Of a stretch of 52,165 nucleotides of DNA, positions 5,584 through 31,321 are shown one piece after another. Under the pieces are notes generated by a model that was not told the origin of the DNA, did not search any database, and saw nothing but the letters and a program-made list of their open reading frames with translations. How positions within the stretch are numbered: the stretch's first letter is position 1; each line of letters opens with the position of its first letter. Source of the stretch: Psammoneis japonica (Eukaryota); assembly GCA_008632985.1 (NCBI GenBank), contig QPGO01000338.1:1-52165 (forward strand), given 5' to 3'. The position numbers and the translations under genes are program-made.

Positions 5584-5584
5584 T

Positions 5585-8562
5585 TTACGGCTCCACAAAG
5601 GTCAAATGAATGTAAAAATGGACGTAAAAGGTGATAAGGAGTAGTGATAGAAATATACCACCAGTGGCCGGTGATTCATGAGCGAACAAGTACCCAGCTA
5701 ACACGAGAATGATTAGGTACAGAACCCAAAACAGAATCGTCGAACGCGTGAAGAATAGAAACCCTCCGCCTTCGTACTTGTTACCGTAGATGTAGAGAGC
5801 CATGTACCTTACAACCTTGTACGCCAACAGGAAGAAGCCTGTCACAAAGATGCCACTGAGCGGTGCAATGACTCCGTACAAGGCTCCCACCATGAAAACA
5901 AAAACGAACAACGGTATGAATTCGTCCTTGTGAAATATCTGCGAAAGAAAGAAGAGTACCTCGCGGCTTTTGGTGGGATGCTGCTTGAAAACAACGGCAA
6001 AACCGGAATGCGAGGAAATCTAGCGTACCTTCATATTAGTCCTTAGTTTGTCGAGTCTTCGCTGAGACAAAGACTCTTCGCGCACAATGTTGTGAAGGTA
6101 GAAGAAGGCAACGACATTGTGTATTTGTGACAGTCTTAAGAGAAGCAGTGCCGCTGTAATAATGACATAGCAAATGAAAAACTGAGAGCTGGATGCGACC
6201 TTCTCGCTGACCTCTAGCAGCCAGCCAACGGGGTCGTCAATCAGGTCGTCACTCTGAGCCACTTAATCGTTACCGATAATCACAAAGATAAAGGTAAAGA
6301 GCCGAAAGGCAAAGTACCAACGAAGAATGAAATGGTCGGTCTCGCTAGCAGATTTGAAGCGAACCCATTCGCAAAGGAGCTTAATCAAGAACGGCACTGT
6401 TCTGACAAGAGCTTCGACTAATAGCGCGGGAAGATACACATTCAGAAGGGCAACGACAGATACGTTCTGAGCATTGAACCAGTCGCTATACTCGTTGTAG
6501 CCACGAATAACTGACACCAAAAATGACCACAATAGCAAACCTCCAGTGAGTACAACGCTTGCCCACATCATGCGTGTAACGATCAGCGCTCTATGGAAAA
6601 TAATATAAAAGGGGATGAACCAACCAACAGATAAGATAGCATGAACAGAGAAGAGAAAAGGGCAAATCAACAAACGAACCTTGACACGTGCTCGTTGCCC
6701 CATATGATATCTCGCACTTCAGGTACAGGCGTCAGAATTATTCTTTTTTCATCCCCACCATATTACACTGAATGGCTTGCTGCTTCGTAGTAAGTGATCG
6801 GAGCTCCACGAAAGCCGTACTCGAATGAACATCGTCGTTGTTTGACCCTGTCAGATAGTTCCATCCGAGCTTCCGAGCTAAAGAAGGCTTCTTCTTTTTC
6901 GGAATCTCTCGTCGTTGTTCTTGCGCCAATCGAATGTATTCGGAATCAATTTCATGATTCATTTGTTGAATTATTCTGCATGGTTGAGGAAAGCAGAAAT
7001 GTAAGAACAAGCAAATCTCTTACGTGACGACTGCGATTTGGTGCTGTACTTACTCGTACCGGTAGTGGTACTGAAGCGCCGGATATGTCCTTGTGTCTTG
7101 AACGGTCCCATTTACTGGGGTTCTGTCCAGAACTTTGTTTCCGTGGTTTTCTCGAGTCTCCTGTCGAACGACAATAGTCATTGGTTCTTTCGGCTCGTGC
7201 GGTTGCTTGGTGACAAGGCAGCATCTCTTCACGACTCCACTCTTATTGCTGTCATCTATGTACCGAAAATAATTCGCAAGCTTGTGTACTTTCTTTGCAT
7301 ACACGTTTTCGTATGCCACGATATGTTTTAAGCGAGTCTGGATCAGTTTTCTGAGGTGCTCATTGTTCAACAGCACTTCCGCATGTTTAATCTGTCCTGG
7401 AAAGATGTCGTCAAAGAATGCATGTAGAGCTTTATCATGTCTCTGAAAAGTCGGAACGTATTCTACCAGAGCCGTCTCGCGATACTGTTTCTTGTAATTC
7501 TCTTGAGAAAAATCACCATTCTCAAGGAAGTCGTATCGCAGTGGCAGGAAGAGTTCCCATTCTGTCCACAGTCTTCGCAGAATATACAGAAACTGCATAT
7601 AGAGCAAAGCCATCACAATCCAAAACCTCCAGCTTCCACTCTCTACAGCCATGATCGTCGTGCTATGAAAGCCAGAAGAAGCTTGACCATTTCCTGTTCG
7701 ATAAAGTGGAAGCAAAAGAGGAAGCGAAATAAACAAAGGCCAAAGGGATGCATGGAAACCGAATAGGAGGAATCGGAGTGTCATGAACGCATCAAGCCCG
7801 ACACACCGCAACAGCTCTTGATCCTCTGCTGACAAGGGGCGTCGTGCTATTTCCTCGGATAAAAATAGTCTTGTCGTTCACTCTGACGAGGCTCCTTGTC
7901 TTGAATCAGCAACACCCGTCTCTTTATGAATTTGAGCAAAGCATATATTGCTCGTCTGTCCCAATCTGTTGAAGTCCCTTCCTGTGAGAATCGCAGTTTT
8001 GCAAGTCAATTTGCTTCTTCTGTGCCAATTGTGATATCGCCGTCGTTGCTCTGAGCACTCTTTACTGATTTTCGCATGCGGTTCTTGAATCGAACTCGTA
8101 GTGACGACTTAATCGAGGTGGAATCAACGCTCTTTGTCGCACAAATATGCGTTCGAAGGATACTCCCTAGTTTCGTATTCTTCTCTTTCTTGGACTTTAG
8201 CTGGTGTCCTTCTCCGAACTCGGACGACGACTCGGGTATTGTCTCGTCCTTTGTCAGCATACCATCGCCGAGTTTGTCGGCACAGAAATCTTCGCATTGC
8301 TTTTCATCGCATGACTCACATCCTATGACATGTTCGTAGATGACATTGCCTCCATATCTTCAATCTCGTGGTCATCATCTTGGCAAGGGTCAAAAAACGG
8401 TGATTCTCTGAAGCAGACCCGCTCCGCTTTTTCTAAGTAGGGATCATCGTTCCATTTTTTGGTGTCGTTGTGCAGCGCTAACCGACGCTGCTCTTTTCCT
8501 TGCGAGCTTCCTCCACACAGAGTTTGCGGTATTCTGTATCTGACAAACGAAATCGCCACCAT
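5585..8562 (-). pseudogene. OSCA/CSC1/TMEM63 (ERD4-like) osmosensitive Ca2+ channel, fragmented and 3'-truncated
   Basis: ELLRCVGLDAFMTLRFL, STAFVEL, PEVRDIIW and YIYGNKYEGGG motifs plus many TM segments, spread over ORFs 7050-7835, 6738-7010, 6263-6703, 6020-6262 and 5585-5911 with stops and frameshifts. Ends abruptly at block I. The 5' limit is approximate. Confidence 0.85.
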
Positions 8563-9119: not shown

Positions 9120-11615
9120 GTTTTCTGTTTTTCGGTCTTGGGGACAGACCAAACAACACAGAGCAGGCAGCAGCACGTGCATGCATTCATTGCATTTAAA
9201 ACTCACACTGATGCAAGAATCAAAGCACAGCATTGCTTCTTTTAAAAAGCAGTGTGGAGCTCTTTGCTAAGTTCATCAGAAAGAGGAGATGTCCAGCTGC
9301 GGGCATGGCTGCTCGGATCTCTGTGAGTTGGTCTGCTCTGTTTTCCACTTGAGTGCTGGCGCATGTTGGGTTCCACCTGCAATCTGACCTGAGCTTTTGC
9401 CACTCTTTTGTGCCAGCCGTCTTTGGCCCGCTGCATTGCTTGGTGCCCTGTTGAAGCCAATTCGTGCATGATTGCACACTGTGATCTCAGCAACCAGCGG
9501 CTTTTCTCACCACCACACTTCAGCTGCATTTCTCTTGCCAGCAGCATCTCTGTGTGACCTCTGGGCTCATCCTCCCATGTTGCACCATTCAACAAAGGAT
9601 GGCAACTGATGAAAAAGTTGCTTGTGACAGCCCCCAGATGTTGTTGAGAGCTGACTTGAGTGTGTCAAAAGGTGCTTCTTTCTGCTCTCCCCCGCAAGGC
9701 ATCCGTGCAAACACTTGTTCCATGGGTGGCTCCAACAGCCAGAGAGCAGAGCAGATCATGACATTTGAAGCACTGTTTTTCCGACAATTTGTTCAATGTG
9801 ATTCAAGTTCACAAGCACGCCACTCAAGTCAAATGCCTGTGTCATGTTTGTGTGCAAATGGCAGCAGTCTGCAGTGCACACACATCATGTCACCCAACTC
9901 TCTCCCCCCCCCCCCAACATCAACCCCCCATTTTGACCATTGCTTCCTGCAAAAAAAAGCATTTGAAGCCATCCACTGACAAAGCAAGTCATTGACATGG
10001 CAGCTCAATTGTTTGCAACCACCGGTGCTTGTTTCCAGCACACCGCAGCAGCAACCACCAGCCTGGTTCTTCTGCAGAGGCTTTCACTTCTTTGGCTGAT
10101 TTTTGCAGCAGCCAGAACTTTGCACTTGGACAGATGATCCATCTGTGGCTTCACATGTTGCCAACAAACCAAAAACTTTGTGCCCTTCCTTTTTGGTGGC
10201 ATCACATTTGTCAGCTTGCAGTTGCGCCACTGGCAAGCTGTGTGCAAAGTTCAAAGACATGCCAAACCCTGGCAAGGCACAAGAGAGGAGCACTTCAGGG
10301 TGCCACCATGACCAGGACACATGTTTGACACTGGCAACCCACTCCATGAACTTTGTTTTGAAATTTGCACTTGTGGCTGCCACCTTTTCTGGCTCTTCTT
10401 TGCTCACTTTCTGCTGCACAGTGTGTGGCGCTGGTTGAAGTGCAAGCAGCATGTGCCCACATGCATGTGTTTGTTTTGGATGGAGCAGGTTGGACTTGCA
10501 GCTCACATCAAGATCATTCAATGGCATCTGGACTGCATCAGTGCACTCAGCCCACATCGCTTGTGCTCTGCAACTTGCCTCTGTCTACAGCTGAGCACAA
10601 GGCTGGCTTTGCCCCTGCACAGTTTTCCCCTCTTTTTTGGAATGTGTCATTTTCTCTTCCTGTTGTGTGAACAACACCTGAAGGCTTTTCCAAATCCCAA
10701 ATGTCACACATGTTTGAGTCTCTTGTTTTGTCAGTTTTGGCCACTTTGTTCAAAAACAGTCACGAAATGATCTGTGCCATCTCTGAGCTGGCCATGTTGC
10801 AACTCCAGTCATTGTTGCTTGGATTTTGACTGACTGTCTTTTCCATCTCCTTGCTGGAAGCAGAGTGGGTGTCACTGCTGCAGTTTTGTTGCTGTCTGCT
10901 TGTGTCACAGCTGAGGGGTCAGGGCTGTCATTGCATGGCTCCTTGAGTTGATTGTCTTCAAAGCATCTGGCAAATGTGGAGCTATTTGGTCATTTCAGTG
11001 CCCCCTTTCTGTGGTGCTTTCCACCAACAAACTTGCTTTGGCTCACACATTTTGCACTGAGCTTTCACAACCGCTTTTGTTGTGAAGACTCAACTTGCAG
11101 CTGTGTTGTCTGTCAAAAGGAGCTTGATTCAATGAGGAGTCAGAGGAGAGTCTTTTCATTGTTGTCAGACATGCAATGAGGACAAAGCAATGAATTCAGC
11201 AGAAACACAAAAAATGCATGCAATGGACAGTTGGGATGAAACTCTTCCAAGCAAGTGAGTTGACTCTAAAAACAAGATGCTGGGCTGGAAAACAAAGCAT
11301 TGCAAACATGTGGTCTTTGGAAAAATTGACTGTCAACCCATCAACAAATGACAATTTTGGCACAGTGCCACATTTGCTGCTGAAAATGTGTCAAAAATTG
11401 TTTGGGAGAGCCCACAGTGGCTGCCTTGGCTGGTTTTTGAAAAATTGGAACACCTGTGAAAAGTGCAACCACACATGTGTGACTCTGCTTGTTTCAAGCA
11501 CAAAAAACAAATGTTGCAAACAACTCTAAGAAATGATGCAGCAGGCATGAAATCCCTTGCTGGAACAAGGGACTCTTCACAGAGAGGAGGAACGCGATGT
11601 CAAGTGCAAATTGGT
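9120..11615. other. TpA- and CpG-depleted hypermutated block II
   Basis: TA and CG are both nearly absent and TG/CA dominate; the short ORFs here are Tyr-free and rich in Cys, His and Gln. Confidence 0.9.
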
Positions 11616-12082: not shown

Positions 12083-13928
12083 CTAGTCGACCGCCTTGGC
12101 TTTCAACTCATTCATTGCAACAGCTTCGTAGGGTTCCTTCTTTTGGTGGGTGAAAACATATACAAGTAGAAGCATGCCGGTACCGACAACTCCTACTCCG
12201 GCTCCAAGCATGAGCTGAAAATGATCCATCCAGTGAAATGACTTATCGGGTTCTCCGATGAAGAGGGTCGACATCATTCCAGTGTCCTCGTGAGCAAGGA
12301 AATGGCAGTGAAAAACCGTCTTTCCTGATAATTCTTGTACTGAACCCAAACGCGAGCCCTAAATTTCGGAGGGACCACAACAGTGTCCCTCCAAGCGTTT
12401 CGATCAAAGACCAGTAAACCCGCAAGCACTTGGTATCTATCGGTGGAAAGCTCAGACCCCATTTCTTTTACCTGAAAACGATTCACATGAATGTGGAAGG
12501 GGTGGACATTGTGGTTGGCGTTGATTAAAACGTATTCAACCGCCTGTCCGGGGTGTGCCGAGAAATCCAAACGGTCTGGATCAAAAGAGCAATAGTCTCT
12601 TCTTATCAATCTGGTGTGCTTGAATGGCTTCGTCTTCTTCGTATCCTGGGGTGAATACCATGTCTTCGATTGGAACGGTCGGGAGCTGCGTGCGGATCTT
12701 TGTGTCCACCGTGATTGTGGCGAGAATTTGATCATGAGGATGACCCCACATGTCAAAGAACTGCATTCCCTGCATTCCTTGTTGAGAAATGACATGCTTG
12801 CCCGGCTTGCAAAACTGAAGCAAAATTTCCTCGCGCTGTCCACCCGCAAAGACAAGCATTGTATGCTTCTTTGGCTTTCGACACGTGACACCATCCGAAC
12901 CAATTACCCAAAACGGAATTGCAGATTCGTCCCAATGGTCGTCTTCCTTTCCTTCGGGGTGACAATAAAGGTATTTTCATTCTCAATGGTCCCGCATAAG
13001 GCTCGTAAATGAAGAACTTCGCCAACACCAACTTCAAAGCTCGGAGTGATTTCCCCATTCACCACAAACGGATGGATCTTGGAGAGGGTCGTTTGTCCCA
13101 TGAGGAACTCATCGACTTCAAGGTTGTGTGTCGGTTTATCCACAGTCTTGAACACTGGATCCCAAATGACAAACTCTTGTGAGTTGGTAATGCCATACGT
13201 GGCAAGCTCGTCCTCCATCGGACCTTCGACATACAAAAGACCAAGCATTCCACTCCAGATCTGGAGAGCCGAGGAGCCGTGCAAATGCGGATGGTACCAA
13301 TACGGCCTGTTGGGTGGTGATCTGGGATGTTAAACTTGTAGCAGTAGCACTCGCCTGGGCTGATGGCAATGTGTGGAGCTTCCGGGTTGTGCGTTCCGAC
13401 GGGATCAAAGATGTGTACTTCAATGCCTAGCCCGTGACGGTGAAGGTTGGTGGCATCAAAGTTCTTGGCCATGTTTGGCCAGTCAAGTTCAAGTTGCTCA
13501 GGATCCTCCACGGGCATCTTGTAGCATTGGTACTTGGTGTGTTCGCCAGGGTTCTCCACCATTTTCCAGTAATCAAAAGCCGTTGGTGGGTTGGGACCAA
13601 TCGACTCTGTAATGTTGTTCTCCAACTTGATCCAAAGCGACTGCCCAGGTTTCATCCGCATGGTTGGCCCCATAAAAGAATCCGATCCTTCCTCAGAGTA
13701 TGTGCGCCCCTTTTACGTGTAATTCAGCATTTTCATGATTCGAACGGACATGGTAAGGTTGTAGTTGACGTCGCCCCCATTGCAAGGATCCGAGCATGGG
13801 ATGAAACCCGTCTCGTCACCCAAGGCATACTTCACAAGTGACACTAGCGAGAGGAGCACAACGTTGCAGGTACTTCTACGCATCCCTTTTGCTCTTTTAC
13901 TAGGTTCAGCGTCAACAACGCGAAGCAT
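12083..13928 (-). pseudogene. Multicopper oxidase (3 cupredoxin domains, C-terminal TM anchor), frameshifted
   Basis: Copper motifs TNLHRHGL, WYH.HLHGSS, HPFHIHVNRFQV, WRDTV and VFHCHFLAHEDTGMM lie in different frames; hydrophobic N-terminal and C-terminal segments. Confidence 0.9.
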
Positions 13929-14683
13929 GAAAGTGATGAAGGCAGAAGATACAAATTATCGAGATCGCGGAGAAATTTGGAAATTGGTCAAATAATTATC
14001 ACCCCAATTCCTATTACTTTCTCACGTTGCACCACCTGCCGATTTTCTCTGTTTCCCGCCACCGCGTCATCGCATGCTCCTGTATTTGCATCCATCTTCC
14101 TCCCTGTTCTTCTCGGAAAGAAACGGTGTCTGGCCAAGTGGGGAGTGAGTTGAGTAGGGCTATGCGAGTATTCATTCTGTTCTTTTGCCTCTCCATAACA
14201 ATTGAGAAGGAGCAGCGGTACAATGTTTGTATCAACGTTGGGGGGATGCGGCTTGAGGCTTGAGCAACAAGGGGGTGCAAAGAGTCGGGCAGCGGGTTAT
14301 TGGGAGGTAGTTTTTTGCATTTCATCCAGAGTTCATCATGCATAGGTAACATTACGACCGGGCGGGGGGTTGCGGATTTGCATTGGGATGGACACAGTCA
14401 GTTGCACAGCCATACTGTACCGTCCGAATAAGGACGACGGACGACAGTCTGCTTTCAATTTGCAGCTTCAGGATTGCGGCAAAGGAACAGAACGATGACT
14501 GCTCTTTCGGCTCCCCGACCCATAACAACACCGCATACATCCCGGAATGGCCTCCCTACCCGCACCGTTGCCTACGCTTGTCGTCATCAACCCACACATC
14601 ATCGATTGCCCCGCCTACTGCCTACTGCCTCAACGCTCACACCCACGCGTACGCACACGCCCCACCCCACGCCAATGTCCTCA

Positions 14684-14970
14684 CCCTTAACTGCGTCTAT
14701 TGCCCCTCTCCACTCGCTCACTCACCGACATCGCCACTTAACTCCCATGCTCAACGCCCGCATCCTTAACTGCGCCTATTGCCCCTCTCGACTCACCGAC
14801 ATTATCGCCACTCCCATGCTCAACGCTCAACGCCCACAAAATTCCTCGCCCAACGCTCAACGCGCAAATCTTCTCGCTCACCTGACGTCCAACGCCCAAC
14901 GACTCTCTCTCCACCGCATTTCGCGATGCACACACATCGCCAACCACCCTCGCATCGCCAACCACCCTCG
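14684..14970 (+). repeat. C/A-rich short tandem duplications (~80-bp unit x2, 18-bp unit x2, CAACGCTC motifs), possibly transposon subterminal repeats
   Basis: CCTTAACTGCG(T/C)CTATTGCCCCTCTC...ACTCCCATGCTCAACGC occurs twice; CATCGCCAACCACCCTCG occurs twice. Confidence 0.75.
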
Positions 14971-15231
14971 CCTCTCCACCAACATCGCACATCCTTGTTG
15001 GCAACAGCTCACCATCGCCCACATCATGCGGCCTCCTCACAAAGTCAGCCTCCTCGGCACGCATCGCAAACCCACCCACCCCTTTTGCCTTTTTTCCCCT
15101 CCAGCCTCTCTCCCCACTGTGTCATCCCACCATGAAAGCAAGTGAGGAAAAGTGAATGCCAAAGTTGTGCATGTTTCCCAACCGCCAATGTGCAGACTGT
15201 CACGCCAAGTCAGGCCTCATGCAACAATGGC

Positions 15232-15605
15232 GACGCGCTCCAGGTCCAGGTGGGACCTCGCACTGCTGAGCTGTGACATCGACAGTTTTTTGAATTGTGT
15301 TGTGTGTCGCGCACACACATTTCTACGTGATTTTGGTGAAATTTTGCATGATTTTACAGTGCAATCATCAGGCTGTCCATTGAACAACTTTCAATGTTTT
15401 TTTCTTCTGCACCAATCTCGAGTGTCTTAAGAATGGCGCAGGGCAGGCGCAGCATCCAGAACTTTGAGTACAAACAGAGACAGATGCACTGCAAACTTGG
15501 CCATTTGCATTGTGTCGAAGACAAATGCATCCATTTGCATGGCTTGCACGTGGAATTCTGCGGGGCAAATGTCACAAAAAGTCCCACCTGGGGCTGGAAC
15601 CCGTC
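15232..15605 (+). mobile_element. Non-autonomous TIR element (MITE), 374 bp, GAC...GTC termini, 4-bp TSD TGGC; partly hypermutated
   Basis: tggc|GACGCGCTCCAGGTCCAGGTGGGAC ... GTCCCACCTGGGGCTGGAACCCGTC|tggc; both ends align with the copy at 17730-18123. Confidence 0.85.
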
Positions 15606-17729
15606 TGGCTCTTCTCAAGAAATTTGACTTGACGAGTCGTTGAGGCAGTTGAAAAGTTCATTTTGCACGGGCAACAAAGCAACAGCAACACCAACTTGAA
15701 AAGAGAGATCAAGCAATCGCGTCTGGTGTCTGACAACTGCTTGTTGGTTGCTTGTCTTTTTCGTCTGCAGACTGGATTGCGCGCAGCTCTCTGCTGCAAA
15801 TGCGCCGCACTTCACTCTGGGGTTCACTGCTCAACTCCAGATCCGCCCATTGTGACATGTGCGTTTTACACAACAAAAGCACAAAGTGTTGCACACAAAG
15901 TTGTGGTGCAGAAGTTGTTGCTTTTGGCAAGCACCTTGCAGTTTTGCGTCTCGGATCGTTTCCATCCTTTTCTCTGGACACCTGCAGTGTGCGGCATGAG
16001 AGGGCTCTCTCGAGTGCCATGAACTTGCCACTGCATGGAATGGTTTTGATGTCTTGAAGCACAGCGGGCTTTTTCCCTTGTTGGATGGATGTGTTTTGAA
16101 GCACTGGATTTTCCGTGTGAATTGATTCAGTGTCAGCTGCAAAGTGCTCTCAGAGCAGCAACAAGTCAACAATTTTTGCACTTGGCATCTGTCAAAAGCC
16201 AGCACATGTGCTGCAACACCAAGTTGTTCATTGTGGGGTCCTTCGTGAGCACATCACAGTGTCTTGGTGAAAAATGCAGAGAGAGAGCGCTTTGAGTGCA
16301 GCCTTGGAACGTTTGCACAACATGAGGACTCCATCTTTGTCCTGGCTGGTTTCATTTTGCACTCAGCAATGAAGCTTTTTTTTTTTGGCAAGGAAGTGCT
16401 TGGCCCCACGCTTGTTGCTTGGAGGCCAAGGCAGAGCAAATTCTGTGTCCTCCATCATTGTTTGTTTGGGCTCAACTGCAAACATGCAACAATGCCATGC
16501 TCACTGTTCTCCACTTTGCAGCACATGCCTGGTTTTGATGATGACACCTCAGGCAAAAAAACTGGAGACAAGCTCTTGTCTCACTTGTTGCTCAACCACA
16601 CCTTGAAGAGATGGCTTCAAACAATCCCAGTCGTGCAGATGAGACAAGTTTTGGTCATTGACTCCTGTGGATCACATGACAAATGACAGTGCATCAAAAG
16701 CCATTGGTTGAGTTACAGCCACTTGACAAAGGCGGCCGCGCTGCTTTGCCGTGCTGCTTCTTGTGCACTGAAGGGAGGAGCACACAACAAAAAAGAGAAT
16801 TCCACCCAAGTTGTCGCCATGCAGCAACCATGACATCCAGAAGAAATGGACAACAAATTGCTCTCAGTTCTTGCAACAACAATTGCAGCACAAAATGCAC
16901 TCTTTGCTCTTGTCCCTGATGCTCCACAAGAGATCTGACACCGCTCTCTGGGAAACTTCCAGGCCTGCAACCCACTCCTGTTGGCAGCTTTTCTTCCCTG
17001 GCAGATGTGTTGGAGCAGTGCAAAGCCACAAATGGTTTGCAGCTGACTTTGCAGATTTGCACTGCTGTTGCTGAACTGATGCACCAAACAGATGCACTTG
17101 GCAAGAAGGAGGAAGTGGCTTGGGGCAACTTTGTTTCCCACCCAATTGTTTGGGCCATTGCTGAGCTGTTCATTTGGAGACTGTTGTCAGCCAAGCAGTG
17201 GCCAGGATCAAATCATTCTGCTGTAAAGCCTGGTGCAAGTCCACCCACTGTCGCTTCATCAGATTGGAAAAAATTTGGGATTTTGTCTCGGACGGCCTTT
17301 TTTTTAAGGTGTGGTTGCAGCAGGCACCTCAGAGGAGATGCAACGGCTGGCAAAACTTTCTTTTGTTGCCTTGCATTTTGGGATGCTTTCAGAATTCTCA
17401 ATGACAGCTGCAAACACAACAAGGCTGCATGCTTTCATTTCGTTGATGTTGTGCCAATGCATCGCTGGATCCAGGCAACTCAACACCTCCATTTCATTGG
17501 CCAGAAAGTCTCAGGGCTTGTGTGCAAGTTAAGAAGCAGTGTTCAGACAACTGTGCAATGTGGCTGCTTTTGATGATGCAATGACTGCATGGTGCAGCAA
17601 CGGATCTGCCGTCACCAGAGAGATCTGGTTGACTCAGTGTCTCCTCTTTTGACAGGCGTTGAGATGCCACCCGACCATTTGGTTGCAAGAACAACCATTC
17701 TTGTGCCTGCCTTCAAGAACCCCAACATG

Positions 17730-18123
17730 GACGGGTTCCAGTCCCAGGTGGGACTGTGTGACATTGGGCCCGTAGAATTCTACGTGCGAGCTCTTAGCAA
17801 ATTTATAAAGTGATAAAAATGTAAATGATCGCCAACAGAAAAAGAGGCAATTTTACGAACGTGTCTCCTCCTTCACACTTGTAGTGCATCATTGACAGTT
17901 TGCCCGGGTGTGTTCTTCAGACATTAAAGAATATACCCAGAGTATTTTCATTCTCATAAATGTTGAAAATAGAAAGCCTTTGGCTTCGCAAAATGGGGAG
18001 TATGAAACAATTTCGTAGAATGTCACACGTAGAAATCTACGTGCGCGACATGCGACGCAATCCAAAACACTCTTGATGTCACAGTACAGTGGTACGAGGT
18101 CCCACCTAGAAATGGAAAAGGTC
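17730..18123 (-). mobile_element. Related MITE, 394 bp, GAC...GTC termini, 4-bp TSD CATG; normal TA content
   Basis: catg|GACGGGTTCCAGTCCCAGGTGGGAC ... GTCCCACCTAGAAATGGAAAAGGTC|catg; opposite orientation to the 15232 copy. Confidence 0.85.
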
Positions 18124-20006
18124 CATGAAAAGGTCCCTCCAACAACTGCAACTTGGTGAGGCAATGCATTCACAAAACTTTTGCATGACTTCAACTTGCA
18201 GGACATGGCAACAGGGCTCAGATCAACGATGGTCTCAACTTCTGGGACAACCTCATTGCAGCAGTGCAACAGCTCCATTGCAGCACGACCTGGTGCTCCA
18301 ATGGCGTGACTTTGCACCCAAGTCATTCTCCATGGCTGTGACTCTGCAGCATCATTTGCAACCACCCAAGCATGCTCAAGGTTGGCGGTGGCAAAATGGA
18401 CACAAAATGAATGTCTGAAGGCACCATGAAATGGGTGCTCATCATTGACAAGATGAAATCAAAGATCAGAGCCATTGCACGGCATGAGCAGGTGTGGGTT
18501 TGTGAAGTCATTGGCTGAGAGATGCAAGCCAACACATGCCATGAAGGCAAAAATGTGGTGGTGAGGACATGTTGACTTTGCTCACCACAACTTGGTTGCA
18601 AAAGCATTTTAACTTTGACAGCAAGCAGTTGGTGGAAATGCAAGTGCCGCCCCTTGCACATTTGTTGGAAGCAACAACACTGCAAATGGACCCCAACATT
18701 CCTCAATGCTGTCACCACAAAATTTGATGAATGGCGGTCTGTCCTTGTTTGGGGACCACTCAATCAAAATTGGAAATGTTGCTCTGATTGAGAACGCAGG
18801 AGCTTTTGTTGGTCAGTGCTCGGCAATGAATGAGTTTGGACAGATGTTGTCATTCTGACTTGTCACAGGGACAACCCTGCTGGAAGTGAAGGACAGCCCA
18901 CATGGCCTCAACTGATGGCACCAAATGCATGGTTTTAAAGGCCCAACAATTTTCTTGGCTGACAGATGCTGTGCAATGGCAAGGAGCCCATTTTCTGTTC
19001 CCTCGCTCCAGAGACAGAAAAAATGGACAGTGCTTGCTTGGGTGGTGTGGCATCTGCTGACAAGGAGCAAGGTGAAATTGTCTCCAACAACAAGCCTCAA
19101 TGGGTTTCAAGTTTGTTGAACTGTTGAACATCTTGACACCCCCAAGCTGCTGATCACATTCTCTGTCAAACAAGTTGCAAATGCTGCTGCCAAGGAAATC
19201 TCCTTGCCAAATGTGCTGAGAACAATTGGGGCGCACTGTTGGTTGTGATGCAGAGCGGGCTTTTGGGGCCAAGGGTGCCCCCCAAGCTGTTCAAGTTGCC
19301 ACACCAGATTTGGAAAACTGTGCTTTTGTGCATTGCCATTCCCTGATGGACTCAAGGCTTTGCCAGGAGTGTGCAGCCACAATGAAGATGGCTTCCAAGA
19401 TTGGCGCAGACAAAAGGAAGCTGGCTCAGATTGGAGTGTTGAGTGTTGTTGACCAATGCAACAAACCTGCAGCACATGGCAAAAGGAGCAAGCAGCGGCT
19501 GATCTTCATGATGCAGCCACAGCTCTTTTTTGGATGGGAGTGAGCACAAAGGCAGCTGACTGTGGCTGTTGGATTGGAAGCAAGCTGTGGTTGATGATGA
19601 GTGCTGTTGCCATGCTGTGGTTGATTTGTGCACTCAAATGATGGCATGCTGCCTTGAAAATGGTCGCCACACATTTTGTGGATCCAAGAGCCATTCCACC
19701 ACCAGATGTGAAGGAGCTGAAGGAAAATGACTCACCATTGCTGTGCACAACCAACAAATCTGTGGCAGCTGCAGAAGCCACTTTTCTGGGTGCGGCAGAG
19801 TTGGCAACTGCTTGTGACATTTTCTGATCATGCTGCTGTCAAAGTTTGAACAGACACAGCTGAGCAACAACCTGCAGCAGTTGTGCCAAAAATGTCAAAC
19901 CAAAGCATCGCTGAGGACATCATTGCAGATGGTGCAAAAGAGGTCATGTGGGAAGTCAGAAACTTGTGTGTCACACCTGAAAAGCAGCAAGCACTGGCAG
20001 AGTTCA

Positions 20007-20007
<1 letters not shown>

Positions 20008-20084
<77 letters not shown>
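20008..20084 (+). repeat. (CA)n microsatellite, about 38 units
   Basis: Perfect CA run. Confidence 0.98.
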
Positions 20085-20088
<4 letters not shown>

Positions 20089-22319
20089 GTCCCACAAGCC
20101 TGACGCTGAAAACAAAAATGGAAATGATGAGAATGAGTGTGGCGCAAATGCCAGAGATGATGAGCCCACACAGCTGCAGCACAGACACTGTGACATGAAA
20201 CAAAACATTGAACATCAGCTCATTTGGCTCAGGAAGGTTCTGTCAAGAAACCTTGGTGTGCCTGGAGTGTTTCTTTGTCCAGCCAGAGCAGCGTTGAGTT
20301 TGTCAAGGAAGCACTGCATGCAAAAGAGTGACTGCAGCAAAGACGAGGCAAACACATTGCAGCGGAAGCTTTTTTGAAAGTGGGTCTGTCATGCTGTGCC
20401 AGGCCCAAAAGAGCTGGAGAGAGAACTCACAAAGCCAGCAAATCTTCTTGCAACTGTGCTTGGCACAAAGACCAAGAAACTGCTGTTTCAATGGAGAGCA
20501 TGGAACCTGCACAAGAGGCGGTGCTTTGTCATGTGCAATGGGGGCGCGCCTCGGTGACAGCCCTCATTCAGGTCAGCACTGACTTGTGTGAGCCCCACTT
20601 TTTAAGTGCTTTTGTGGAGCTGGCACACTTGAACATGGATGTCATAAAAAAAAAGGTGAAGTGAGACAGCTTCTCTGGGCCTTCAGCTGCTCTCCAAGGC
20701 TTGCTGTTGCTTTGTTGCATGAGCTCATTCACTGTTGGAGCGCCAGCACAGCATCAGCAGTGTTGGTGTTCTTGGCCTGCCCACAAAACATGGCAACACT
20801 GCTGCAATGGTTGGGAGGTTAGAGTGAGAAATGAAGTTCACTTCAACACAGGAAGAGCTGCTTGAGCTGCAACATTCAAAGTGGGAGATGACCGCAGGTT
20901 TTGGAAACACTGTTGGGAATGAGTTGGGTTTCAAGAAGACAGTTGATGCACACAAAAAATGTGGGAGTTTGGATGAAGACAATGTTGACGCACGGTGCCA
21001 AGTCTGGGTGTCCAAGTGCCAAGAATTGCCTGCATCAGCCTCCTAGATTGCAAAGAAACTGAATTGGAAAAGAGGCATCAAGCCAGTGAAGTCACCCACA
21101 GAAGTCATTTTTTTCATCACAGCTGCACCAACTGTCAAAGCAACCAACAAACAGAAGCAGACAATGGCTCATGTGCTCAGTGGGGTGAGATGTCAATTTT
21201 TTGGAATGAGCTGTCAAGGATGAAGATGATGGCAAGAGAGCAAAAACTGACATGACACACAAAAATGCATTCCATCTCATGGCATGTTTGAAGGAGTTCA
21301 AGAAAAACATTGGGAATGTTGCTGCAACCACACTGTGAGTGAAAAAGAAGTGAACAAAGCCTTGAGAAGAAACAGCCAAGAGAGAGGCCCAATTCAACAG
21401 ACAGAGGTTGCTCACCTGGATGGCAGCAGTGAGCTGGCACTGACACATCATTGCAATCTGGAATTGGAGTTAACAAAAGGTGCTCCAAAACCACACTTGA
21501 TTCTTCAAGATGACAGCATGTTTCCAACCAGCACGGCTTTGATGATGATGATGGCTCAATGCCAGCTGGAGGAGATGCCCCCAATACAGGCAGCACAAAT
21601 GGTGCAGAGTTGCCACCCCAAGAGCCAATTGCAGCCCCTCCATTTGTTGGCAAACTGCCTCTGAGCAAGCGGGCATCTGACTGTGCTCCACCTCAACCTG
21701 TCCAAAATGTGGTGTCTCCCAGAGCAAGAAGAAAGAACAAAAGAACAAGCACCAAAAGGCAAGAGTCAGACGTCAAAAATGTGGCATGGGAAAATCTTTG
21801 GGTGTGCACACTGAATGTTGCCAAAGGACCAGATTCAACAAGCGGCAGTGGAAGTTCATTCACGTGAATGATGTCTGAACAACACACCAGCAGACAAACG
21901 CTTGGGTGGTTTCCCCATTGCACCAGCGGGTTGCGTGCTGGCAAATGACAACAAAGTGGAGCTCACTTTCCCCACCCATCCACTCCAGAGTGAGAGTGCA
22001 CTCCACACAAACCTGTGTGAAATGGTGCAAACCCTGGAAGCACATGGAAAAATTGGTGCTGGAAATGGGGTTGAATGGTGCCAAGAATTTGTGCGGTGCA
22101 CAAGTTTTTTGACACGTGCCAAAAAGTGCTCCTGTTCCACCCACTTGCGGTAACGCGGTCGCACTTATTCCCGGCACTTACCAGCAATGCTGCTCTTCCC
22201 AAAAGTGGCATGGTAGATTGATGACTCTGTAGACTTCCTCAACAACAATTGCCACTTGCCACACCTCTCTACTGCATCTCTAGAGTAGAGCTAGCTCTAG
22301 TTAGAGAGAGTGTCCGCCG

Positions 22320-22440
22320 TCCCGTCCGTCGTGCGCAGAGTTTGTCAACACAAAAAAGAAAAAAACACCGCACCATGGCGTGTGAAACTCGAAGACCTAC
22401 CACTCTGTAACTTCTGTAAGGATTTGTCAAGCGACACCGC
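22320..22440 (+). repeat. Dispersed non-coding repeat, copy A
   Basis: CCGTCGT(G/A)CGC..TTTGT..AAAAAAC(AC)ACCGCACCATGG(C/T)GTGT..CCTACCACT..GATTTG(T/A)CAAGCGA shared with 31322-31465. Confidence 0.8.
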
Positions 22441-25400
22441 GTCTAAGAATTGTTTCATAACTTCAAGTTTTGATTTACGACGGAATAACGTTGTGAACAG
22501 TGCCGTCAAAGTGTCGGAGGATAGGATTTGCTTCCCTTCATAAATCATTATGAGACACCGCAATCACCACCATGATGACACGAGCCGATAACACGACAGA
22601 ATTGTTCCAAATGGCAGTCTGTGGTGTTTGTATAGTGCCGTTATGGGGTCGGTGTTTGGATGAAAGGACGGCAGGAGAACGGCAGGAGAATCAGAAGTGC
22701 TGAAAAAAGGCGTCCAATTCGACAAAGAGCAAGTACATTATGCAGGATACAACTCGATCGGCAAGCTTGTTTGGTCGGTTTGGTGGCTTGTTTGGTGGAT
22801 GTCATTTTGTAAGTTCTTTGTGAATGAATCATACTCGTTTGCATTACAAACATGCCGATGCTCCTTTTCTCTGATTCAAAATACAATCTGTCTCATTCCA
22901 TACTATTTTTCTTTGGAATAGCTCAAACATGAATTAAGTATTACGATTTACGATGGCCCCGGGCATTGCAGCCGAGATTGGTTTACGGTAGCCAGATTGG
23001 CGCCCATGGGAATAATGATGTCTCGGCCGGCGCTTCGCCCATCCTTACCCTACGGTTGTGTGCTCATTACTATGGATGCAGGTAAGTTGTATCCTTCACC
23101 AAAAACGTTTGGAGATTCGCAACCCGAAAGCATCCTCTCTTTTTGGTTTCCGACTGGTACGGAGTTTCATTTCTAATCTCATACTTGATTCCGTTGCTTG
23201 TCATACCCAATCACAGCCAGCATCTTTATGCGAGAAATGGACAAGTAGTAGTGCAGCTGTAGAGAGGTTGGATCCATAAGTCACTTTATGTTTGTTTCCA
23301 AAATTGCGCTGTACACAAGAGAATGACGAGGGAGTTGAAGATTTGGTTGTTTTTTCTACGTGAAAGCTGTTTGGTTTGTCTCATGTAAATGCCGCAGCTG
23401 TTGGTAGGGAAGTTATCAGTACATTCACGATACTGCTTTCGGTCATTCAGGCCTGCTGTTCCGCCGTTCGTCGTTTCTTCTCTCTTCGCCGCCTAAGACA
23501 ATGGGGTCATTTCCAAGAATGTTTCCTGTTCTAAGCATCGTGCAAGTCACTGTTGTATCAACTTGCTGTCAATACGAATCGGCGCTCATCGATGAGGTAC
23601 TTTTCACCCCAACGTAGCAAACGTCGAGGTTCTGAATGGTAAATCAGTCGATACATATTTATCGAACGAGCAGCAAGACTGACTCCACTTTGGCCAGCAC
23701 TTGAGCTGTCTTTTTCCATAGAGAGCTATCGATACAAATGAGTTTACTGTGTGACTTGAAGGAACTGCGCCTTTTGCTGGAATACTTGAACAGGCATTTG
23801 TTCAAGCTGGTTTGGACGGTTTAGCTGTTGTTAACGGCTCGCAGCATGATTCGTCTTCCTTGTCTGGCTCATTGAACTTGCTTCTCTTTTTCAAGGAGAA
23901 CCAGCAGAGCAAGTCGATGGATTTTTTGATGTCTCGTCGACTTTCGATCTTGTACGAAGGGACAATGGCACTGTTATCCCATCGTTGAAAAATCGACGTG
24001 GTAGATCCTCAAGGAAACCTGCGGAAATGCTTTCACCGACGAAGTGATCTCCCGATATCGAAACCTACGAGTAATATGGAGACTGAAACATCAACGAAAG
24101 GCTACGAGATCGAGGCATTGAATCCTCTGACGTCAAAAGAGGCACCAGCTCAAGACGGACGCGGAGCTCAACTTGGAACGAGATCCGCAGAAACGCAAGG
24201 CAACCTAGAGAATCGGAATTCAGACACGGAGCTCGACATGACGCGGTGACACGGTCGAGGAATTGAATTCCAAGACAGAAGCAATACTCGATGATGATGA
24301 AGAGCCAGTGGATAAGTCATCTGAGGAGAAAGGATCAGGCGCCGCGGTTGCGATGTTGAGTCTCAATACAGAGGCAGCAGTAGCCCAACCCATAAGGAGG
24401 CTGCCGAGGTGATCGACGATGTTGTAGAAGATAATGCGCCTTTGTCTCTTTTGAAGGAAAGGATCCCCCGGAAGTCGTCGGGAAGCTTATAGGCAGATTG
24501 CTATTATCACGGTAACTGAGACATATTCCTCTCTTGCACATTCGTTAATTCAGGAAGAAGAGGGGTATGTGCGACCATGTGGTTGGTAGCCTGTTGCACT
24601 CGAGATTCTGATCCTAGATATTGCAAGGATGACGAGTGATAGTAAGCCGATCCCCAACGTGCTTTAGAAAGACGAGTTAGAGAATTCTCCACATTTTCCT
24701 GGATGCAACGGAGCAGAACCTCCGGCCTACATGTGTTTTGCGTGGGGCGTGTCGATGACATGAAAAGAAAAAAATATTTTAGCTCGAAATTTATATCTAC
24801 AGAGAGTACACCAGCTCAAGATTCGGTTTCATCGTTCCACCCACTAAAATGCTACACTCTGATAAACATGACTACTGACTGAGCCAGTTTCAAGTTGGCA
24901 AACCGTCCGAAACAAATTGCAACCACACAACTTAATCAACGATGCTGAATTTCGGTTGCAGAATCCTTGATGGGGGTGAGTCGAGCAGCAGTGTTATTCC
25001 GCGCAAGCCGTGGCGGCTCATACTGTGGAGCGAGCGTATCTCTTCCGAGACAGCAGACAGAAACACCGATAAACGTCTGAGGAAGTATAATGGCGGTATC
25101 CGACCCTCCTTCAATTCGTTGCCGACGTTCCCGATTCCCGAAACAATGTGGGAAACTAGTAAGACGAGACCGACGACAAGACGAGCTCCAGCAAAGTACC
25201 GGTACATCATCGACCGTTTTCGCCGTGAAGAAGCCAACTTTCACCAGGCCTAAGGTAGAACTTTTCTTGGTAGCACGTAGTGCCATGGGGAATGCGTGGC
25301 GTCCGAGTACAATACGGCATAGCAAAATGAGAGTTGCATTTGGTACTCTAAAATGCCTTTCGAATCTGTTCCACCTTGAGTAGAGACTGGTAGAAGTGCT

Positions 25401-25924
25401 TGTAAAGGAGACATGGGTGTCAGCGCTGTGAGACAACTGCTCAAATGAAGTCCTGTCCAAGAGTCTCCCACAGTTCAGAGACGGCCCCCGACGGACTCAA
25501 CACGAGCGATCATTCACTTGTCACTGTCTAAAATCCATGGATCGACCAAAGGTCGTTGGACGGCGAATAGGTACGCCTCATGTTTGTTGTTTCTCTTGTC
25601 TGTCGAGATGACGTTGTTCACGCTCCGTGTGATCGCAAAATCTTCTCCGTGAAAGTTCAATGCTTCTTTCATTTCTTTATTGGTTGACGGATGACAAGCT
25701 GATATGAATTTACCCATGTGAAATCTACTAGATATCCACTTGAGATCATGCTTCGGCGGAACCTCCACTACAACATTATATCACATACGCAGCTGTAGAT
25801 GCATCCGCATTCATTCATGCCAGCCGCAATGCATTCTGGAAGCGCAGTTTCAAGGAGTGTGTCGCTCTCTATCTCGTTCAAAATTCCACAATCTTGAAAG
25901 CTGTCTCGCATCCAGCTCATTTTT

Positions 25925-26400
25925 CTACTTTCTTGCCGTAACCTCGGCACCCACCACAAATTATTTGGTCCCCGACAACCACTGCTTGATGACCTCCCTA
26001 CTCCCGTCCTTGAGATTTACCTCCACCTCACGAAATCCCGCATCCACCGAGTATTCTTACACGGGCGCCAATTGTGGCGCCGCGGCAACTCAGCAATAGC
26101 CATCGCCTCGGCCGGCTTGAGGCGATGGGGTATCGGGTATAATCATTTCGGGGCAAATCACGACGTCAGACACGGCAATGCGACCACCCGGTTTGAGAAT
26201 GCGGTGTATTGCTTGAAACACCTGCGGCTTGTCAGGACTGAGATCGATGACGCAATTGCTCACAACACAACCCACCGTGCCGTCGGCACTACGGGAAGGT
26301 GTTCAATCTCTCCCAAACGGAATTTGACATTGGTCGTCTTCTTGTTGGCATGACTTCGTGCCTTGTAAATCTTTGTAGGGTGTCATGTCGACACTGCAAT
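25925..26400 (-). pseudogene. Arsenite methyltransferase (AS3MT/ArsM-like), 5'-truncated and frameshifted
   Basis: VDMTP...[64 protein letters not shown] and FVVGAEVTARK*. Confidence 0.85.
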
Positions 26401-26649
26401 GACAAGATTGGGCTAGAGACGACTCGAGGCACCTGTGAAGTCTCACAATTTTGATCAGTTTTTCCTTTTTGAAAGTGTTTCGAAATGTTTCATTCAGTCT
26501 CGTATAAAATTATTAATTTTCGGCGATCGGACATTTTGATAAGAAGATTGTGGTACGACACCCTCGTACGTTTCTACGATAAATCCTCAGTCACAAACCT
26601 TGCTTGCAACGCCAAAATCTCAGCGCATCGAAAGACCACACCATTCACG

Positions 26650-28150
26650 ATGCTTTCAAAATCAATGACATCCACGATGTACAAACAAACAATGAGATAC
26701 AATCACTCTACCCGCACCGTTCCAATGGAAGACATGGGCCGAGCTCGAATGACATGGAAGACTTCCGAGGGGAGGAAAAGAAGCCGGCAGCTAACCGAAG
26801 CGGAGCTCGAACGCGAGATGCAGCTTTCAAGAATCGGAAGCCTTCCGAAACGTCTCCAATGGCAGCCGCTCGTTCAGGTGACTACTATTCCAAATAAACA
26901 TGAAACCTCCAATGTGTACTTGCTTGACGAGTCGACGGAATCGACTGCCTTGGGACCACACACACCATGCGAAGGCATTTTGAGATCGTCACGTTTGCCA
27001 GTTTTGCCGGAGCTTTCTGGATGGATGCCGATTTATATGCATTCAAATGAATCAAGGCTACTCCAGTGTCGGAATGAGTGCTCCCAGCACAATCACTACT
27101 CAGGTGTCATGCAACGGATTGCTGGCCAGTCTTCGAATGAATGCCTCTTTGTCGATGAGTGCTCGGGTGACAAGAGAAAACGTCCAAACAACAGGGAGTA
27201 CGATTCTCGGAAGCGCCGTCGCACATCCTACTATCATGTTGTTCCCCGTCTAGAGGAGAGTGGTGACCAAGGGAGCAGTCATTCTTCTTCCATGCCGGAT
27301 CTCATGGGTCAAAACCTCCGCCCAAAGACCATTCGTGCCCCAAGGAAAAGACGAATGAACTCGCACTCCAAACCTGATCATTCCTTGTACTTTATGGAGC
27401 ACTTTACAGCACGGGAATCTTTGGATGGATGGTTTATAGACACCTTTTCTGGCGTGAAGAGAGAGTTCTCAAACAGAATGCTGCGCCCTCGGAAACGACG
27501 CCTAATCATTCGTGATGACGATGAAGCGAGTGTTGGCCTTGACGTCAGTTCTAGTCCTGAGCAGGGAAGTCAGAGAGTAAGTCGTATCGTACCGTATCAT
27601 CCGCACTGTCATTCTATCCCGCCTTTTTCATTGTCAATTGACTAAAGCTTGTTTCTACTTTACTCTATAACCACAGTCTATACCTGAGCAGTCCATTCAA
27701 CATGAGCCATCTGCCGTTGCATCTTCTACGATAGAGATTCCTTCCGACGAAAGCGATGCGTTTGGTTTAGATGAGGATCACGTCCAAGCGGTGACCGTCC
27801 CTACGGTGGTGTCAACGGTGCAAGAATCCCTCATTACGGATGACCAAGCCTCTGAGACGTTGTCAGCATTGGTGCCTTCAGAGCAAGAGATCCCTTCCGA
27901 CTCGAGCGATGAGAGCCTTCCAGACCAGCACGGTGTTGAGGGGCTGTCGGTCGATACTGAACAGGCAGATGAAGCCGAGCACGTTCAAGCACCTACCTCC
28001 CTCATTACGGACAGCAGTGCTTCTATTGTTCCAAGGCGGTCTGCTCGACTCAGAGCAGCTTTGGGAAGCGTGTATGTTCTTTCCGCTGATGGGCGAACTA
28101 TTCGAAGGTCGGCTAGAATCTTGAACCGTCAAGGCGGCGTAGTGGGATAG
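26650..28150 (+). CDS. Hypothetical low-complexity, probably nuclear protein with twin C-terminal RRSAR motifs; one intron (27577-27676)
   Basis: A phase-0 GTAAGT...GACTAA...CACAG intron joins ORF 26485-27645 in frame to ORF 27791-28150. Ends PRRSARLRAALGSVYVLSADGRTIRRSARIL; several basic clusters. Confidence 0.65.
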
Positions 28151-28201
28151 TTCAAGTGCCTACGGGAATGAAGAAATACCTTGGAGGAGAGAAGAGTGGG
28201 G

Positions 28202-28204
<3 letters not shown>

Positions 28205-28235
<31 letters not shown>
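28205..28235 (+). repeat. (AG)n microsatellite
   Basis: Perfect AG run followed by degenerate GA-rich sequence. Confidence 0.95.
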
Positions 28236-28236
<1 letters not shown>

Positions 28237-28804
28237 GCGGAATGGAGAGAGGAGCAGAACTTGGAGAGAAAGAGAGAGAGACGGGGAGCGGAGTATATAG
28301 AAAAGAGAAAGCGTCGATTCGTAGAGTCCTAGAGAGGTCAAGAGAGGAAGAAAATGAATTTAGGGAAATGGCGAGGCAAGAAGAAGATTGAGTTCGGTAA
28401 GGACTGTAGGTAGTAACACTCACACTTGCTTTTGTTTGCTTCAGCGGTTCCGAATGGATAAATTGAGTCTGCCGGCGAGTTTTCTGACCACATTCTGACT
28501 CCGTATGAATAATCAAGGTCCTGTTGCTTTCGTGTATAACGATCGGTAAGTTTCGGGTGAGCAGCGATATTCTGTCGATAGTGCGGAATCTTCGTGGCGC
28601 CTGCAGTTCGGTACATATCACGCACAACACGCACCTTTACATTCAACATTTCGGATTCAGCTTTGAGGGTTTGAAAACTCGGCAACAGACTTTTTTAAAC
28701 ATTCCATGGTGGACCGAAAAGCGGTGGACAGTGTGGCACTTAGAGTGCGGACGGATCCAGTCTTGTTCCTGCAATGAAGTACTTGATGATTTTAATACCT
28801 TTAC

Positions 28805-29295
28805 TAGTCGGAAAGTTTTCTGTTGGGTTTTCACAAAAATAGCATAGTTGTGTTAGGAACATTTGATAGGCGTACGGAGAGTTTTCAAGCTTCACGCTCA
28901 ATTGCGCATGCTGGAAACTCGTACCTTTCACGCTCATAACATAGCCTTTTCGTTAAAGTTAGTTTTCCAGTAAGTATCATCCAATGCAATTCTTGTAGTT
29001 CCATCTTGTCAGGGTGTAACAATACTCGGAATTCGCAAACTCTTGTCAGCACCCAACGGACCCTTTCTTTTTACAATGGATTAATCAATGATTACAGGAA
29101 CTCTCATGTCGAATATTTTTTGTTGGGGTTGAGAGTAATGTGACTTCGTTAGGATGTAAGGCGTACGAAGAGTTTTGAAGCAACTAGTTCAAATGCGCTT
29201 TGAAAGCTCGTATCTTTACGCTCGTAACTCTTAACGTAGGCTTTGTTCATTCAGTTTCTAGCCCACCAAGCATTTTAACTTTTTCCAGTAATCAT
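28805..29295 (+). repeat. Diverged direct duplication (period ~290-300 bp)
   Basis: GTTAGGA..AGGCGTACG(G/A)AGAGTTTT(C/G)AAGC..CTCGTA(C/T)CTTT(C)ACGCTC..TTTTCCAGTAA at ~28852-28975 and ~29148-29292. Confidence 0.75.
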
Positions 29296-29758
29296 CGTGT
29301 ATTGCAGTTGCTGCGTGAACTAGTGCTCGTACCGTAACCAACGTCTGTTCAGCGTGTGATCCCCAATCGTCATGGATTTTGCAAAGGCGTCATGATGGAT
29401 TGTTCCCTCAGATCACATCTGGCCAACATTCGTGCTGTATGGCGGTGGGCAAGCTAGGATCTTAACGAGATGGGCAGATAGATCACAAAACCAGCGATCT
29501 TCTTCGAAAGGTCTTTCTTGGATGCAATGCCGGAAATATAATAACCCTTTGACTGAATTGAGCGCTTTCTTGCAAAAGAATTCGACGAGCGCGTACAGCA
29601 GAACTTTTATCTCTTGCGACCAGCCTACTGTAGAAGCTCTCGCCGGAAAATGGGCTACCCTCACTCTAGCTGGCGGGCAGAGCGGCTAGCTACCCACACT
29701 TCCCAACTGAGCCGAGCTTGAACGGTCCAATCTCTATACAGAGAGGGCTTTCCACGCA

Positions 29759-31170: not shown

Positions 31171-31321
31171 ACATAATTTCATAAGATACAAACGCAACAA
31201 AACAAACAAGCTGCAGAAGCGGCTACGCGGTCTCTGTGAAGCATAGAGTGAAGGTCATCGTCGCAAAAGCTCATCTGCGTACTTCTACTCGCGCAAAAAA
31301 TAAAAAACACCCCGACTACCG

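Follow-up and report, generated by a model that had tools for sequence, protein, structure and literature searches.

A 52,165-nt stretch of the Psammoneis japonica contig QPGO01000338.1 (the window) carries five blocks of DNA that are nearly free of the dinucleotide TA, and two related miniature inverted-repeat transposable elements (MITEs), copies A and B, are inserted in this TA-poor DNA. The reading that we prefer, and to which we give a probability of roughly 0.6, is that the blocks were produced by regional mutation of TpA to TpG or CpA, with a preference for TAY and together with a slower decay of CpG, and that this process was recorded by one older and one younger MITE insertion. Copies A and B would be independent insertions of one very abundant family of terminal inverted repeat (TIR) elements into a 7-kb noncoding block, and this block and four others in the window would have been altered on both DNA strands by transitions specific to sequence context. 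The fast component would turn TpA into TpG or CpA, that is, A to G on either strand, with 5′-TAY-3′ preferred; the slower one would act on CpG with the same products, as deamination of methylated cytosine does. Copy A would have been inserted while the process was active, losing about three-quarters of its TA and one-third of its CG, and copy B would have been inserted late and be almost intact still. The observations behind this reading are the dinucleotide composition, a gradient of erosion from block to copy A to copy B, the polarity of change at six sites, a second version of the block with less erosion, and contigs lacking one or the other element. The elements and the blocks, the latter with no strand assigned, are as follows (O/E, observed/expected ratio).

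15232 to 15605, plus strand: copy A, a 374-bp nonautonomous TIR element (MITE) with GAC...GTC ends and an inverted-repeat match
17730 to 18123, minus strand: copy B, a 394-bp relative of A in opposite orientation, with inverted-repeat matches
3441 to 5585: block B1, 2.1 kb, TA O/E 0.09, CG O/E 0.73, TG/CA O/E 1.42 to 1.44
9269 to 11526: block B2, TA O/E 0.02, CG O/E 0.14, TG and CA O/E 1.88
14804 to 17729: block B3, TA O/E 0.05 (9 TA versus 108.6 expected), CG O/E 0.46; contains copy A
18124 to 22150: block B4, TA O/E 0.03 (8 TA versus 152.7 expected), CG O/E 0.17 (41 CG versus 232.6 expected)
35081 to 37386: block B5, TA O/E 0.05, CG O/E 0.14

Blocks B3 and B4 form one 7-kb block that is split by copy B, an element-sized island of TA-normal DNA. 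The five blocks hold 3 to 12 TA each versus 73 to 153 expected (p from 1e-18 to 1e-54) and have a TG/CA O/E of 1.4 to 2.0 with unchanged base composition; outside the blocks, TA O/E is 0.58 and CG O/E is 0.99. The TA edges are sharp to about 30 nt. The right edge of B1 (5585 to 5588) coincides with the stop codon of a minus-strand RSN1/CSC1-like gene, and B5 starts about 230 nt past the end of the open reading frame (ORF) at 34078 to 34851, directly downstream of helicase-domain ORFs. Given these positions at ORF ends, the blocks may begin within 3′ untranslated regions or shortly after them. No 3-base periodicity was found in B2, B3, or B5, and it was weak in B1 (5.8) and B4 (3.9). The possibility that the blocks are coding sequence in an unusual genetic code was ruled out on the lack of periodicity in B2, B3, and B5 and on the ORFs across the six frames. 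None of the 113 block ORFs (stop to stop, at least 70 amino acids) reached the Pfam cut-off, with two sub-threshold chance matches, and Rfam gave no match across the whole window. When blocks were compared with one another and with normal DNA in a transition-blind alphabet, the only similarities found were an 84-nt tandem array and the element pair, and terminal direct or inverted repeats at the block edges did not rise above those of shuffled sequences.

Several local features lie within the blocks. At the left edge of B3, over about 250 nt (14804 to 15065), TA is absent, CG is present at normal density, and CA outnumbers TG by 38 to 6; an 18-nt tandem repeat occupies 14935 to 14989 in this part of the block. 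B4 contains a perfect (CA)38 microsatellite (20008 to 20084), and B5 contains an N-filled assembly gap at about 36849 to 36871.

An earlier note on this DNA had described copies A and B as two related, oppositely oriented MITEs, and the description is borne out by their alignment, their GAC...GTC termini, their target duplications, and their inverted repeats. Each copy is flanked by a 4-bp target duplication of its own, TGGC for A (15228 to 15231 and 15606 to 15609) and CATG for B (17726 to 17729 and 18124 to 18127), and the terminal inverted repeat of each is imperfect and spans about 25 nt, the 25-nt arms of A being 84% complementary. Because the duplications are separate, A and B inserted independently and do not make up one composite; a foldback or composite structure spanning A, B, and the intervening 2.1 kb was ruled out on the same grounds. 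Sequence common to the copies covers about 100 nt of one end and about 75 nt of the opposite end. Their middles show no relatedness even when scored in a purine/pyrimidine alphabet, which agrees with the earlier caveat that they are diverged relatives with different middles. Both are assigned to the MITEs as short, noncoding elements with TIRs, a 4-bp target duplication, and many copies. No third copy was found within the window, nor an autonomous partner; the P-element-like ORFs at 46790 to 51950 have no termini in common with A or B. A three-motif pattern for the element, which itself matches only two of the four arms in the window, returned no loci in either metagenome_contigs or viral_contigs. 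A second MITE-like element lies at 38553 to 38874 in TA-normal DNA, with 44-nt arms that are 91% complementary; its interior contains CGCGCACGTAGA, 12 letters identical to those of the box region in copy B described below. It may be a distant relative of the A/B family that lies outside any block.

Erosion is graded from the block through copy A to copy B. TA retention is 6% in the flank of A (5/82.6), 27% in A (4/14.7), and 119% in B (22/18.5), and CG retention is 33%, 66%, and 95%, respectively. In copy A, the 4 TA fall well below the number expected at the window background (p=0.001; O/E 0.16), and 14 CG are present versus 21.2 expected (p=0.07); copy B, with 17 CG versus 17.9 expected, has a normal composition in both respects. 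Across 174 aligned positions in the conserved ends, 140 are identical and 34 differ, by 20 transitions and 14 transversions. TG or CA stands in A opposite TA of B at five sites and opposite CG of B at four. The reverse case occurs at one site, 15281 (CG in A, CA in B), and TG in one copy stands opposite CA in the other at two further sites. The split of 9 versus 1 has a one-sided binomial p of 0.011. The four string pairs quoted in the earlier note were all found in the sequence, and the TG/CA of A opposite TA or CG of B that it described is seen at these nine sites; its phrase that the changes were all in the same copy was slightly overstated, given the reverse case at 15281.

The direction of these changes is not obtainable from two copies alone, and the outgroups used were the element's own palindrome and the family majority in public reads. 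Each arm of the element contains a self-complementary box, CGTAGAWWTCTACG, and because the box is self-complementary, its canonical form is taken as ancestral. Across the four arms, five of eight half-sites are canonical, four of four in B and one of four in A. The three deviant half-sites are thus all in A, each without its TA (15316, 15552, and 15560) and one also without its CG (15315). The two boxes of copy A read as follows.

15312 to 15329, plus strand: box in the left arm of A; the left half is CACACA versus CGTAGA (differing at 15315, 15316, and 15318), and the right half, TCTACG, is intact
15546 to 15562, plus strand: box in the right arm of A, with TG at both TA places (15552 and 15560)

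The public reads that contain the stretch come from a single study of three runs, with no RNA run listed. From run X1, contigs assembled from exact words of 31 letters were compared with the stretch, and 3049 of them could be placed on it at a likeness of at least 80%; the part of the stretch compared with the reads reaches to 18400. Over A and B the word depth sums to 8.7e3 to 1.4e5, versus 55 to 290 beside them, from which the family would have some hundreds to thousands of copies, a rough figure in that summed depth is not copy number. C is the family majority at 15296, 15298, and 15301 (92%, 86%, and 90% of summed depth), and the majority thus reads CG opposite the TG of A. Judged by these read contigs, the majority confirms 15298 and 15301, two of the CG sites of the earlier note. 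In addition, one contig that aligns from 15319 on has the canonical box letters before that point. Among the 40 of 247 differences from the family majority that were listed, copy B departs from it at three positions, including TA>TG at 17812 and CG>CA at 18059. In total, seven sites could be polarized. Six agree with a change from TA or CG to TG/CA in A (three TA and one CG by the box, two CG by the family majority), and one (CTAGG>CCAGG) probably opposes it. The direction inferred in the earlier note is thus partly supported, being right in kind.

The run contigs also contain a second version of the block, about 90% alike, whose differences from the window are almost only transitions. It was found in run contigs for the window intervals 14804 to 22150 and 15612 to 16113, and one of its records shows 25 differences and 4 gaps over 15612 to 15875. 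Among the 20 differences listed, which span 15642 to 15845, the second version has TA opposite TG of the window at four sites, with none in reverse, and CG opposite TG or CA of the window at five; the reverse direction was seen at one site (15845). The other listed differences are two CA/TG doublets, one CG/TA doublet, and four other changes. The CA/TG doublets suggest an ancestral TA or CG that was hit independently in each version. Over the compared stretch, the second version has 5 TA versus 0 in the window and 13 CG versus 9. Changes of A to G or T to C at TpA thus comprise the three polarized TA losses in copy A and the four second-version sites; other transitions and transversions also occur. 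Copy A is absent from the second version, which joins 15191 to 15610 and has a single TGAT there versus TGGC on both sides in the window, and two other contigs join across the site of copy B (17730 to 18129 and 17660 to 18129). The existence of contigs without A and of contigs without B fits both elements having entered after the split of the block versions, with A then eroded and B not. To judge from these contigs, the second version also supports the wider claim that TA and CG are rewritten to TG/CA across the block, and as an internal control it is superior to the element pair. Elsewhere, the sole contig placed at 16313 to 16557 differs from the window at 10 positions, and parts of B3 and the first approximately 280 nt of B4 (to 18400) are matched by additional diverged contigs, at least 80% alike, with a summed depth of 81 to 290. 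Run contigs match the block sequence without any difference over 15612 to 16342 (731 nt) and 14800 to 15257.

The distribution of products and survivors bears on the mechanism. TG and CA are interleaved at random in every block (runs test z from −1.3 to +1.5), on which basis strand-coordinated runs of TG or CA were rejected. Random interleaving indicates that either strand was hit site by site, and it argues against a single-stranded RNA or cDNA intermediate. Among the TAs surviving in blocks, 22 of 39 lie in YTAR, versus 209 of 1526 outside (Fisher p=1e-9); because the survivors are mostly YTAR, the sequence context implies that the target of the TA-erasing process would be 5′-TAY-3′. When the context distribution outside the blocks is taken as ancestral, TA survival is 31%, 5.5%, and 1.2% for sites with TAY (A followed by a pyrimidine) on zero, one, and two strands, respectively. 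The corresponding hazards of 1.16, 2.9, and 4.43 are additive per strand (0.58 and 2.2 to 2.3), and a four-parameter fit assigns hazards of 2.9 to TAT, 2.0 to TAC, 0.9 to TAG, and 0.3 to TAA (likelihood ratio 52.5, 3 df). The products agree with the survivors, TGY/RCA being enriched 1.6- to 1.7-fold in the blocks and TGR/YCA 1.4-fold. Residual block TAs often lie inside TTTTAA-like runs. The natural substrate of TadA/ADAT2 is A34, which follows U33 and in bacterial tRNA-Arg is followed by C, and this U-A-C of the tRNA loop resembles the 5′-TAY-3′ preference of the blocks. ADAR prefers a 3′ G, unlike the process recorded in the blocks, where TAG and TAA resist.

Several points weigh against regional mutation recorded by two insertions. 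Run X1 may be the data source of the window assembly itself, in which case its contigs are not an independent confirmation of the letters. The CG edges do not coincide with the TA edges: CG is preserved in B1 and in the leftmost 260 nt of B3, and CG depletion in B3 is found only to the right of about 15065. Since CG depletion starts elsewhere than TA depletion, TA loss would run ahead of CG loss, and a common cause is not required. Neither a protein signal nor terminal repeats nor similarity between blocks reveals what the blocks once were. Copies A and B are old relatives and not parent and child, as their transversions and unrelated middles attest. CCAGG occurs in three of the four arms, which makes the CTAGG of B the outlier, and the quoted change of CTAGG to CCAGG probably ran the opposite way. 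Finally, none of the six differences from the family majority listed for copy A is a TA site (three are CG>TG, two are A>G outside TpA, and one is a transversion), so the case for TA loss in A after insertion rests on the palindrome, on the one contig with canonical letters before 15319, and on composition.

The main alternative to this reading is that the differences between A and B are inherited from subfamilies: the founder of A's subfamily already had TG/CA, the TA poverty of A was copied along with it, and its position in a block is coincidence. Such an origin is favored by the unrelated middles and the 14 transversions in the ends, by the high repetition of the interior of A in the run (summed depth of 13,715 to 33,030 versus 55 to 290 beside it), by the lack of TA sites among the listed family-majority differences of A, and by the outlying CTAGG arm of B. 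We nevertheless consider it unlikely, given that the T found in A at 15296, 15298, and 15301 is carried by a minority of the family (8 to 14% of depth), that the altered half-sites of the self-complementary box (3/3) sit in A, and that the contig aligning from 15319 carries the canonical letters. Moreover, the TA level of A lies between those of its flank and of B, as position and age predict under regional mutation.

Two further explanations concern the blocks themselves. Selection in place of mutation would make the blocks functional, for example as a class of long stable RNAs or structural DNA that avoids UpA/TpA and CpG, with copy A purged after landing there. Avoidance of CpG and UpA is known in cytoplasmic RNAs and RNA viruses, as passages of PMC3829696 relate, and the edge of B1 at a stop codon and the start of B5 about 230 nt past an ORF end also count in favor of selection. 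The fit is poor, however, and we regard the explanation as improbable: depletion is symmetric across the strands with TG and CA randomly interleaved, a block version about 90% alike keeps TA and CG at the same positions, copy B sits within the block with its full TA and CG, the CA/TG doublets indicate independent hits and not a favored word, and Rfam matches are lacking in the window. An error of sequencing or assembly, in which heavily modified bases were miscalled and TA and CG were written as TG/CA, fits poorly as well and is highly improbable. Strand-specific miscalls would be expected to change either partner of a self-complementary step at random, as seen here, and about 20% of the sampled words of the stretch are missing from the best run. 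Set against this, the exact matches of run contigs over 731 nt and over 14800 to 15257 reproduce the block, though the run may be the assembly's own data, and the same pipeline reads 22 TA in copy B within the block.

Regional mutation of TpA and CpG, as we prefer to read the blocks, can be compared with known systems. Fungal repeat-induced point mutation (RIP) changes C to T at CpA, leaving TpA enriched and CpA/TpG deficient, and is read as genome defense. The blocks resemble its products as a regional, saturating, transition-only rewriting of chosen DNA with sharp limits. They differ in that TpA is erased here and CpA/TpG gained, so that the RIP indices are opposite in all five blocks and place none of them among RIP products. 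They differ also in that a family with 100 to 1000 times the summed depth of its flanks has CG preserved in most copies, with TA preserved in copy B. As most family copies keep CG and B keeps TA, copy number alone would not be the trigger, and we infer that targeting was by locus (silenced or foreign DNA) and not by copy number. Deamination of 5-methylcytosine causes CpG decay in the methylated transposons of vertebrates and plants and leaves TpA untouched. The CG O/E of 0.14 to 0.17 in B2, B4, and B5, with its gain of TG/CA, is like such decay, as is CG>TG private to copy A at 15296, 15298, and 15301, and by this analogy the CpG loss in the window would come from methylation. The attack on TpA and the CG edges unlike the TA edges set the window apart from it. 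Footprints of ADAR (A to I) and APOBEC (C to U) in retroelements, as treated in parts of PMC4866542, are likewise clustered transitions in mobile DNA attributed to deaminases. Those footprints, however, are strand coordinated and arise through an RNA or cDNA stage, whereas TG and CA are interleaved at random here, and a DNA transposon and noncoding flanks are affected.

The closest parallel is found in mutation-accumulation lines of Bigelowiella natans, in which, according to the main text of a preprint, de novo mutations are almost only TpA>TpG/CpA (Mettrop et al., 10.64898/2026.01.13.699255). The targets described there are a region of integrated giant-virus DNA and a virophage region; 124 genomic clusters of 1-kb windows depleted in TpA and enriched in CpA+TpG are reported, and a TadA/ADAT2-like DNA adenine deaminase is proposed as the agent (10.64898/2026.01.13.699255). 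In the full-text literature, this 2026 preprint was the only source found, as far as main texts tell, on targeted A-to-G rewriting of genomic DNA at TpA (10.64898/2026.01.13.699255). Blocks B2 to B5 show TpA depletion and CpA+TpG enrichment in the same sense (TA O/E 0.02 to 0.05, TG/CA O/E 1.70 to 2.03, 2.3 to 4.0 kb); B1 falls short of the CpA+TpG cut-off and of the 3-kb length of a B. natans-type definition. Here as there, TpA becomes TpG or CpA on both strands, and many of the affected B. natans sequences, by the preprint's account, are without annotation. The window differs in several respects. Depletion is near saturation here (TA O/E 0.02 to 0.09), compared with the Rho of 0.45 that the preprint gives for its nucleocytoplasmic large DNA virus (NCLDV) region. 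CpG is also lost here, and a 3′ pyrimidine is preferred; in the preprint's main text, "CpG" occurs 0 times, as do "context" and "trinucleotide." Viral or transposon protein signal was not found in the blocks here (Pfam, 113 ORFs), and TA makes up about 4% of dinucleotides outside the blocks (from O/E and base frequencies), compared with 6.0% in the preprint's text. By analogy, the window is apparently a case of B. natans-type TpA hypermutation in another organism, and its agent would be an adenine deaminase acting on DNA. What the window would add to such a process is saturation, codepletion of CpG, a 3′ context, and a transposon chronology.

A bolder reading, which we put forward as tentative and doubtful, is that a second eukaryote, distinct from B. 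natans, possesses a locus-targeted DNA-rewriting defense that collapses the two pyrimidine-purine steps that are self-complementary, TpA and CpG, into TpG/CpA until none is left. Its adenine arm, with the TAY signature, would resemble a TadA/ADAT-type deaminase rather than ADAR, and a single deaminase with dual A/C activity, drawn to one and the same marked DNA, may account for both arms. Its action would be episodic, a transposon that arrived midway being half erased and a later one untouched in the same block, within a family of hundreds to thousands of copies. A footprint of this kind in another organism would point to a lineage-spanning mechanism of genome defense or silencing that is the mirror image of fungal RIP. 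If so, the saturated blocks would be the end state of the process, dated transposon insertions would be its clock, and the TAY preference would be a concrete biochemical prediction for the enzyme. The blocks would also have lost all protein similarity, and foreign DNA treated in this way would be invisible to ordinary annotation.

The remainder of the window contains intron-split ORFs of eukaryotic type, encoding an RSN1/CSC1-type channel, a multicopper oxidase, a TRM5-type methyltransferase, an SPB4-type DEAD-box helicase, and an MFS transporter. For two ORFs of the window, the best relatives in the large protein database, which lacks the proteins of this organism, are only 30% and 43 to 55% identical. 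Three long overlapping ORFs of 717, 284, and 764 amino acids occupy 46790 to 51950; the middle one has a TNP-like RNase H N-terminal domain (P-element/THAP9-type transposase), and the 764-amino-acid ORF has one database relative, at 30% identity. On the minus strand, 15 to 2552 is an open frame of 845 amino acids without a Pfam match, inside which a 6.7-copy tandem array with an 84-nt period (1263 to 1809) corresponds to 28-residue protein repeats.

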